The notes under the pieces were generated by a model, which saw only the letters and a list, made by a program, of their open reading frames with translations, was not told the DNA's origin and ran no database searches. This document shows positions 49,140-54,305 of a DNA stretch of 64,000 nucleotides, in pieces (position 1 is the first letter of the stretch; the number at the start of each line of letters is the position of its first letter). Where the stretch lies: NCBI RefSeq assembly GCF_055900595.2, contig NZ_CM148325.1. The stretch is one strand, 5' to 3'. Made by a program: the position numbers and the translations under genes.

Positions 49140-49250
49140 GCCATATGCGGCGCGAACGCCTTATACGGCCTACAAAAGTTTGCAAATTCAATAAATTGCA
49201 GAATTCATGTAGGCCTGGTAAGCGAAGCGCATCAGGCATTTTGCTTCTGT
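49140..49250. repeat. REP/BIME cluster in the sbp-pfkA intergenic region
   Basis: atgcggcgcgaacgccttatacggcctac … gtaggcctggtaagcgaagcgcatcaggca palindromic units. Confidence 0.7.
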
Positions 49251-50435: not shown

Positions 50436-51338
50436 TTATGAAAGCATAGACCGTTTACCCTCCCTGGGTACGACGGAACAGGGATCCTGATGGATAATCA
50501 CATCCGATCCCGGAAAACGCCGTAAAATAGCCTGCTCTACCTGATCCGCCACCATATGTGCCTGAACCAAAGGCAGAGAGTCTTCCATTTCCAAATGAAT
50601 CTGAATAAAGCGGGTCGGCCCTGACTGCCGCGTGCGAAGATCGTGAGCGCCGCTAACACCCGGCCAGGAAGTCACGATATCAATAATTTCTTGCCGTTCC
50701 TCATCAGGTAATGCGCGATCCAGTAATGACTGTACCGCCTCATATCCCATGCGTAACGCGCTATATAAAATATAGATGCCGATTCCCAATGCAAACAGAG
50801 CATCGGCGCGATGCCAGCCGTACCAGGACAACCCCAGCGCCAGCAGAATTGCGCCGTTCATCATAACATCAGACTGGTAATGTAGCATATCAGCCCGCAC
50901 CGCCTGGCTTTGCGTCCGGCGCACCACCCACCGCTGAAACGAGACAAGGATAATCGTACAAATTAGCGCCACAATTGTCACGATAACCCCGACGCCTGGA
51001 TCTGTCATCGGTGTTGGAGATACCAGATGTTGAATACCCGTCAAAAACAGGAATAGTGCCGAACCGGAGATAAACATACTTTGCGCCAGCGCCGCGAGGG
51101 ACTCAGCTTTACCGTGACCAAACGAGTGATTATCGTCGGCAGGTTGCAGGGAATATCGCACCACCAGTAAATTCGTCAACGACGCGCCGATATCCACCAG
51201 CGAATCCACCAGCGCGGCGAGAATACTCACCGACCCGGTATACCACCATGCAAAAATTTTAATCAGCAATAGCAGCGAAGCCATCGCCGTTGCAGCAATC
51301 GCCGCCCGACTGACCAGCCGTCCATAAGATTGATTCAT
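50436..51338 (-). CDS. fieF: Cation diffusion facilitator FieF (YiiP), Fe/Zn efflux
   Basis: [47 protein letters not shown]… 300 aa. Confidence 0.9.
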
Positions 51339-51420
51339 AAATACTCCCGCTATCAACTGACGGTAGTATAACGGAAGCAAATCATCTGCAATGCATTAAG
51401 CAGTAGGCAAATTGAGGATA

Positions 51421-51480
51421 AAAAAAACCCCCACATCATGTGGGGGAAGACAGGGATGGTGTCTATGGCAAGGAAAACAG
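51421..51480 (-). ncRNA. cpxQ: Candidate CpxQ sRNA (3'-UTR-derived fragment of cpxP mRNA) including the cpxP terminator
   Basis: Position immediately downstream of the cpxP stop, ending in the cccccacatcatgtggggg hairpin plus U-run; assignment rests on K-12 knowledge, exact 5' end not determinable here. Confidence 0.45.
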
Positions 51481-51486
51481 GGTTTA

Positions 51487-51987
51487 CTACTGGGAACGTG
51501 AGTTGCTACTACTCAATAGCTTCAACGATGAACTTTTTTGCCATTGCGTCACGTCGCGCAACTGCTCCATTCGTTGTTGATGTTTCTCGTTTAAAACCGC
51601 TTGCTGCTCCGGCGTTAACAGGCGATACATTTGATTGCGGACTTTTGCCATCTCAACCTGACGAGCAATTTGCTCATTCGCCATTTTTTCTGCCTGTGCG
51701 CGCACAGCGTTTTCATCAAATTTTTCTGCGGTGACAAGGCGATGCATTGTCTCCAGTTCGCTAACATTAACAGGCGGCTGTTCGTGCCGGGCCTGTTGCA
51801 TAAGATCTCGCATCTGCTGACGCTGATGTTCGGTTAAACTTATGCCGTCGAACATATGGCTCTGCGTACTGCGCTGCGTAAGTTCTTCACCCGGATGCCA
51901 GTTATCGCCTGAACCGACTTCAGCAGCGTGGCTTAATGAACTGACTGCCAGCGTTGAGGCCATGACGGCAGCGGTAACTATGCGCAT
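51487..51987 (-). CDS. cpxP: Periplasmic stress adaptor protein CpxP
   Basis: [48 protein letters not shown]… with LTXXQ motifs; 166 aa. Confidence 0.9.
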
Positions 51988-52066: not shown

Positions 52067-52081
52067 GTAAAACAACGTAAA
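52067..52081. promoter_or_regulatory. CpxR-P binding box in the divergent cpxP/cpxRA promoter region
   Basis: gtaaa-acaac-gtaaa equals the GTAAA-N5-GTAAA CpxR consensus. Confidence 0.7.

Positions 52082-54212: not shown

Positions 54213-54305
<93 letters not shown>

Follow-up and report, generated by a model that had tools for sequence, protein, structure and literature searches.

The locus directly 3′ of cpxP is almost certainly the known Escherichia coli CpxQ small RNA gene, and it overlaps the attachment site of WΦ-type phages

CpxQ, as described in E. coli K-12 and Salmonella, is an sRNA of the Cpx envelope stress response that derives from a 3′ UTR and depends on Hfq. Transcription of its parental gene, cpxP, is activated by CpxR-P, and according to published work the sRNA arises by processing of the 3′ UTR of cpxP (PMC9438474, PMC4817254). 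RNase E cuts CpxQ from the cpxP mRNA, and Hfq, which binds CpxQ, sharpens the cleavage and protects the product (PMC9438474). CpxQ represses nhaB, skp, agp, ydjN, fimA and cfa, either by blocking translation initiation or through decay by RNase E, and is regarded as the non-coding arm of the Cpx response (PMC9438474, PMC4817254, PMC6755755, PMC10250213). It resembles SdhX, SroC, MicL and NarS in its release from an mRNA 3′ end by RNase E, in its 5′ monophosphate and in the use of the mRNA terminator as an Hfq-binding module (PMC9438474), whereas parental genes, seeds and targets differ. Features of its own among the 3′ UTR-derived sRNAs are a monocistronic parental mRNA and an extent that covers almost the whole 3′ UTR.

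We analyzed a 64,000-nucleotide stretch of DNA, referred to below as the window. Judging from its sequence, the segment 51477..51420 on the minus strand, directly 3′ of cpxP, is almost certainly the known E. coli cpxQ gene. The window shares with the K-12 and Salmonella loci the order cpxP–cpxQ–fieF, the strand, the length, the pairing blocks and the processing-site context. Identity to K-12 is 57/58, and the sole mismatch falls at nt 42 (window 51436), the third base of the terminator loop, which is A here and C in K-12. The features of the locus are given below; R1 and R2 are our own labels for two conserved blocks, the CpxQ seed definitions having been taken from secondary sources.

52067..52081, plus strand: CpxR box GTAAA-N5-GTAAA between cpxP and cpxR, the only perfect match in 64 kb
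51487..51987, minus strand: cpxP coding sequence, the CpxQ parental mRNA (ORF, Pfam LTXXQ, RefSeq annotation of identical genomes, K-12 start codon)
51478..51486, minus strand: spacer from the cpxP stop to the CpxQ 5′ end, consisting of an in-frame second stop TAA plus ACCCTG, identical to K-12
51420..51477, minus strand: cpxQ, encoding the 58-nt CpxQ sRNA (UUUUCCUUGCCAUAGACACCAUCCCUGUCUUCCCCCACAUGAUGUGGGGGUUUUUUUU), 57/58 identical to K-12 ncRNA cpxQ b4716
51464..51477, minus strand: 5′ pairing block R1 (CpxQ nt 1–14, UUUUCCUUGCCAUA), invariant in 40 distinct orthologous sequences
51447..51461, minus strand: second pairing block R2 (CpxQ nt 17–31, CACCAUCCCUGUCUU), near-invariant, with a 1-nt deletion in 9 of the 119 loci listed
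51428..51446, minus strand: intrinsic terminator stem-loop of 8 bp with a 3-nt loop (terminator scan, folding, ortholog folding)
51420..51427, minus strand: U8 tail, read from the sequence; 7–9 U in all 50 orthologs
50436..51338, minus strand: fieF, next gene after cpxP and separated from it by the insulating CpxQ terminator (ORF, RefSeq and K-12 annotation)

The K-12 reference NC_000913.3 annotates an ncRNA cpxQ (b4716, "small regulatory RNA CpxQ", 58 nt) at the homologous place, starting 10 nt 3′ of the cpxP CDS; in the window, cpxQ starts 9 nt past the cpxP stop codon on the same strand. Read on the minus strand after the cpxP TAG and the in-frame TAA, the sequence is ACCCUG UUUUCCUUGCCAUAGACACCAUCCCUGUCUU CCCCCACA-UGA-UGUGGGGG UUUUUUUU. 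The initial annotation had proposed a likely CpxQ sRNA locus downstream of cpxP and had described the sequence as looking intact. Both proposals hold: the ORF upstream encodes CpxP, and nt 1–41 are the same as in K-12, leaving the terminator-loop base as the lone difference. The alignment to the reference CpxQ that it had suggested as a test for seed divergence reveals none, and the pairing blocks are invariant or nearly so in the 119 orthologous loci listed.

CpxQ is already known, and the copy in the window is intact and of the commonest E. coli allele. Of 5,424 E. coli records, 4,192 contain the window's 58-mer without any mismatch (100% identity), and a further 1,223 fall in the 95–99% identity band, to which K-12 belongs. 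At 51436, A is the base of all WΦ-type phage cores and of the majority of E. coli and of orthologs, and the AUGAUG loop region is present in 84 of the 119 orthologous loci listed. The window therefore carries the majority allele and K-12 a minor one. The window is part of an E. coli chromosome, and the 851 bases around cpxQ match 5,425 of 5,426 complete E. coli genomes, where the genes are annotated as cpxP, fieF and cpxR; the RefSeq name cpxP is given in genomes that are 100% identical across the locus. An annotation of cpxQ itself was seen only in the curated K-12 record, and in PGAP-annotated RefSeq E. coli genomes no feature lies under the 58-nt cpxQ match in 12 of the 12 matches listed.

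The cpxP product matches Pfam LTXXQ with 76.8 bits (2.3e-21). The cpxR and cpxA genes diverge on the plus strand, and the minus strand carries, in order, cpxP, the intergenic stretch and fieF. The CC dinucleotide at –5/–4 relative to CpxQ is 97–99% conserved in the 119 loci listed, even though neither the mature sRNA nor the search pattern includes it, while positions –12 to –8 vary freely in the same loci. This pattern suggests that the dinucleotide marks the sequence context in which RNase E would cut. A promoter scan found no sigma-70-like site inside cpxP upstream of CpxQ, which fits production of CpxQ solely by processing; an independent CpxQ promoter inside cpxP was rejected for the same reason.

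The terminator scan of the minus strand places the stem at 51446..51428, with 8 pairs, 6 of them G-C, around a 3-nt loop and followed by TTTTTTTT. The initial annotation had described a GC-rich hairpin and a U-run directly after the cpxP stop on this strand, and the scan recovers exactly this arrangement, with a T8 run. Some details need correction. The hairpin string quoted there, cccccacatcatgtggggg, has the right stem and is a plus-strand reading of a near-palindrome; the transcribed minus strand is CCCCCACATGATGTGGGGG, in which the loop centre differs. The interval proposed, 51421–51486, covers the right site, but 51421 clips the last U of a U-run of 8 nt (51427..51420), and the mature sRNA, going by the K-12 annotation, starts at 51477, not 51486. 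Together with the preceding U-rich GUCUU, the hairpin and the U8 tail would form the usual Hfq-binding 3′ module. The 67 nt 3′ of the cpxP stop fold with –17.4 kcal/mol (z = –2.35 against dinucleotide shuffles, of which 5 in 200 fold as well), and the 19-mer of the hairpin is unique in 64 kb, where no chance matches are expected. Terminator-like sites in the surrounding 2 kb number 2, compared to 2.2 in shuffles. This lack of excess implies that the significance of the element rests on the quality, position and conservation of the hairpin.

Conservation was assessed by searching a single genome of each species with a pattern anchored on the seed, which yielded at least 120 loci, 119 of them usable. 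Among the loci listed are representatives of the Enterobacterales genera Citrobacter, Salmonella, Enterobacter, Klebsiella, Yersinia, Pantoea and Erwinia, as well as of Dickeya, Brenneria, Lonsdalea, Cedecea, Buttiauxella and Mangrovibacter. The CpxQ unit is 57–62 nt long in the 119 usable loci listed, and in 104 of them it is preceded, at a distance of a few nucleotides, by the end of a CpxP-like ORF that carries an L[ST]xxQ motif. The pattern fixes 21 seed bases, so that their invariance is in part a product of the search; positions left free by the pattern are nevertheless essentially invariant, position 4 being U in 119 of the 119 loci listed. The 9–10 nt between blocks are UAGACACCAU in 110 and UAGACACAU in 9 of these loci. 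R2 includes a predicted weak 5-bp helix, AGACA/UGUCU, which never varies in the orthologs, and covariation can therefore neither support nor contradict it.

For the terminator, each sequence was folded separately and the pairs were tabulated from the base of the stem. The terminal hairpin forms in every one of 50 distinct orthologs, 49 of them from the loci listed in the genome scan and one being the K-12 allele, with 6–9 bp followed by 7–9 U. The 50 orthologs display 21 stem compositions with double-sided swaps, including CG, GC, AU and UA alternatives at stem positions 5 and 6. MAFFT combined with RNAalifold on 40 orthologs predicts just 3 pairs in the terminator, as indels throw the stems out of register. 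The compensatory changes point to conservation of the 3′ hairpin as a structure, serving as terminator and Hfq module, while the 5′ 30 nt, which contain the pairing blocks, are conserved as sequence and the terminator stem drifts.

We transfer the mechanism from the Salmonella ortholog and from K-12, whose CpxQ sequence is nearly identical. Envelope stress would signal through CpxA/CpxR, and CpxR-P would drive cpxP transcription that ends at the CpxQ terminator. RNase E, aided by Hfq, would then cleave the cpxP mRNA just past the stop codon, around CCCUG|UUUU, to give a stable sRNA with a 5′ monophosphate. The 5′ blocks of Hfq-bound CpxQ would pair with mRNAs such as nhaB, skp, agp, ydjN, fimA and cfa, and this pairing would block translation initiation or lead to decay by RNase E, lowering the load of inner-membrane proteins and Skp-mediated mistargeting. 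The hairpin would also simply end cpxP transcription ahead of fieF.

As a check on targets, the two conserved blocks were folded block-wise against K-12 target regions. R1 is predicted to pair with nhaB at +306..+315, cfa at –135..–128 and skp at –18..–6, and R2 with skp at –21..–12 and cfa at –179..–167. The nhaB site is the second-best R1 site in that gene and, in agreement with the published E. coli duplex, has U7 paired as G:U; the R1 site in cfa, in the long 5′ UTR, adjoins the G residues that, in the published description, immediately precede the site. In skp, the two blocks together are predicted to cover the Shine-Dalgarno region (–21..–6). Of the published sites, the block-wise scan finds again the one in the nhaB coding sequence and the one in the cfa 5′ UTR, while whole-region RNAduplex energies are better than those of shuffled sRNAs for cfa alone (z = –3.7, compared to z of about 0 for skp and nhaB). 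The predicted pairing is thus consistent with these targets but has no statistical support for skp and nhaB. Separately, an 11-pair duplex with two G:U pairs (–15.3 kcal/mol) is predicted between CpxQ nt 1–11 and the Shine-Dalgarno region of K-12 nhaB, –16..–6. The site in the Salmonella nhaB translation-initiation region has been described as not conserved in E. coli (PMC10250213).

The 58-mer search returned about 670 more places than records, and these include a 32-kb circular "plasmid" record. This record is the genome of a P2-like phage in which 45 bp of the CpxQ 3′ region (42 bp of them within the sRNA, nt 17–58) adjoin the integrase. The shared segment extends in WΦ-type phages to a 47-bp core, which gives the locus one further feature.

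51417..51463, minus strand: 47-bp attB core of WΦ-type P2-like phages (CpxQ nt 15–58 plus ATC), unoccupied, at 100% identity to the phage segment

Among 62 phage records that match, the core is found at 100% identity in WΦ and in further Peduovirus phages from Escherichia, Salmonella and Yersinia. In WΦ, it lies between ogr and int (L129 2501–2547, 47/47 identical), with paired TGTGGAC arm repeats on both sides that match the published P2-type arm consensus tgTGGaCa (PMC3448106). A lysogen, E. coli 23556, has the order cpxP, complete CpxQ (attL), int and, at the far end, ogrK, the 47-bp core (attR) and fieF. Its two cores lie 32,131 bp apart (L124 654–700 and 32785–32831) around a 32.1-kb P2-like prophage, attL being the same as attB on the cpxP side and attR on the fieF side. 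From this junction structure we infer integrase-mediated recombination at the core in cpxQ, by which integration would rebuild an intact cpxQ at attL and leave a 5′-truncated copy lacking R1 at attR, beside fieF. A 121-nt junction probe found the contiguous site in 4,591 of 5,425 E. coli genomes, leaving about 15% without a contiguous junction, an approximate value, since it is based on coverage thresholds rather than on counts in individual genomes.

In Erwinia sp. OLFS4, Yersinia pestis NCTC5923, Pantoea ananatis and Trabulsiella, CpxQ is followed by a WΦ-type integrase or what remains of one. In Y. pestis NCTC5923 (L071) this is a C-terminal integrase remnant of 99 aa, 67% identical, about 170–470 nt downstream of CpxQ. 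Yersinia genomes sequenced by 2011 were reported to have no attB matching the L-413C/WΦ core (PMC3448106). In O157:H7, a 31-kb prophage has been tabulated between cpxP and fieF (PMC7609406). For the WΦ attB itself, the original description was taken from secondary sources. After conversion from old to new coordinates, the WΦ site in MG1655 presumably falls inside cpxQ. It is listed as position 4104392 in older coordinates, and P2-type sites have been described as lying between genes (PMC3448106). The 47-bp identity between phage and host lies at cpxQ, attL and attR are seen in the lysogen, and the overlap with an sRNA gene does not appear in the attB literature searched; no paper linking the WΦ attB site to CpxQ was found among searchable papers. 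The overlap is analogous to the use of tRNA-Ile by phage 186 and of ssrA by Fels-2.

The phage-borne segment, CpxQ nt 15–58, contains R2 and the complete Hfq-binding terminator and might conceivably do more than restore cpxQ. Transcripts that end in attP or attR, through read-through or processing, might yield a 5′-truncated CpxQ-like RNA that competes for Hfq or regulates the subset of CpxQ targets that pair with R2. We consider this improbable; if true, such an RNA would tie lysogeny or infection to the envelope-stress regulon. A role of the phage core copy as the first terminator of ogr was rejected, as a separate terminator hairpin belonging to ogr precedes the core by about 100 nt in WΦ. 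This also makes strong expression of the phage CpxQ copy unlikely and lowers the probability of such a truncated RNA.

A scan of the window at Rfam gathering thresholds reveals nothing at the cpxQ locus. The best match below threshold is RF02628, Hrs1, with 44.5 bits against a gathering score of 56.4 (E = 3e-7) at 51420..51492 on the plus strand. By Rfam's own cut-off, E. coli CpxQ is therefore not a member of the Hrs1 family. In Erwinia amylovora, hrs1 (Hfq-regulated sRNA 1) lies between cpxP and fieF, co-oriented with both; the RNA depends on Hfq, ends in an intrinsic terminator and has been seen on northern blots (PMC4070566). Synteny, Hfq dependence and intrinsic terminator are thus the same as for CpxQ in the window, whereas the strand of the model is reversed and the score stays below threshold. 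The RF02628 model begins with an A-run followed by a hairpin and aligns along the whole of CpxQ. It scores 59.5–69 bits in four Erwinia loci (L042, L046, L079 and L111), and in the three of these with a strand listed (L042, L046 and L079) the match is again opposite to the CpxQ strand. Hrs1 is the Erwinia ortholog of CpxQ, and RF02628 is stored as its reverse complement. The reversal explains why E. coli CpxQ has no above-threshold Rfam match on the correct strand, and the orthology implies that the description of Hrs1 as Erwinia-specific (PMC4070566) does not hold.

Elsewhere in the window, above-threshold Rfam matches to naRNA4/CssrE (85.4 bits, 54220..54297, plus strand, downstream of cpxA) and ES036/CssrF (48.2 bits, 49175..49216, plus strand, downstream of pfkA) look like REP-type repeat elements. 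A ClpQY (hslVU) promoter element (63.6 bits, 34439..34496, plus strand) and a gammaproteobacterial L31 ribosomal-protein leader (60.1 bits, 29787..29839, minus strand), also above threshold, are expected chromosomal features.

The same evidence bears on other readings of the locus. It is highly improbable that the element is only the cpxP transcription terminator, in a 3′ UTR with no trans-acting role. The hairpin and U-run are indeed a textbook intrinsic terminator, and cpxP needs one before fieF. A terminator, however, needs no 30 nt of invariant upstream sequence, and these nucleotides are fixed across genera while the stem drifts with compensation. Regulation of skp, nhaB and cfa by CpxQ has also been demonstrated genetically (PMC4817254, PMC10250213, PMC6755755), and for K-12 and Salmonella the published phenotypes of cpxQ deletion and pulse expression refute a role in termination alone. 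A similarly slight probability attaches to conservation that stems from use as a phage attB and not from sRNA function. Nucleotides 15–58 plus 3 nt do make up the attP core of WΦ-type phages, and roughly 15% of E. coli genomes have no contiguous junction there, but R1 (nt 1–14) lies outside the core and is equally invariant. In Yersinia, Dickeya, Lonsdalea and Cedecea the terminators differ from the phage core while the 5′ 30 nt are unchanged. The ortholog set also speaks against a seed conserved solely in lineages with WΦ-type prophages. Moreover, phages usually adopt conserved host RNA genes instead of causing their conservation, as established for tRNA and tmRNA sites (PMC3448106).

A functional RNA on the plus strand, antisense to the 3′ end of cpxP, has a practically negligible probability, even though the best Rfam match lies on that strand. 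On the plus strand an A-run precedes the hairpin and no U-run comes after it, leaving that strand with no terminator, whereas hrs1 itself is co-oriented with cpxP and fieF and ends in an intrinsic terminator (PMC4070566). As RF02628 matches the strand opposite cpxP and CpxQ in Erwinia too, the model itself is reversed, and in published strand-specific data from E. coli and Salmonella the reads come from the cpxP sense strand alone. The antisense RNA that the Hrs1 match would suggest was therefore rejected as a product of the reversed model.

With cpxQ as by far the preferred reading, the locus adds nothing new about CpxQ. The overlap with attB is more interesting than the reversed Rfam model, and both are minor side observations. 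An sRNA present in essentially every E. coli genome is missed by automated pipelines, PGAP placing no feature there and Rfam giving a sub-threshold match on the wrong strand. The overlap bears on how cpxQ is to be read in lysogens, where a second, 5′-truncated copy lies beside fieF. As a phage landing site, this sRNA gene acts like a tRNA gene: the phage carries the 3′ part, and the gene is rebuilt.
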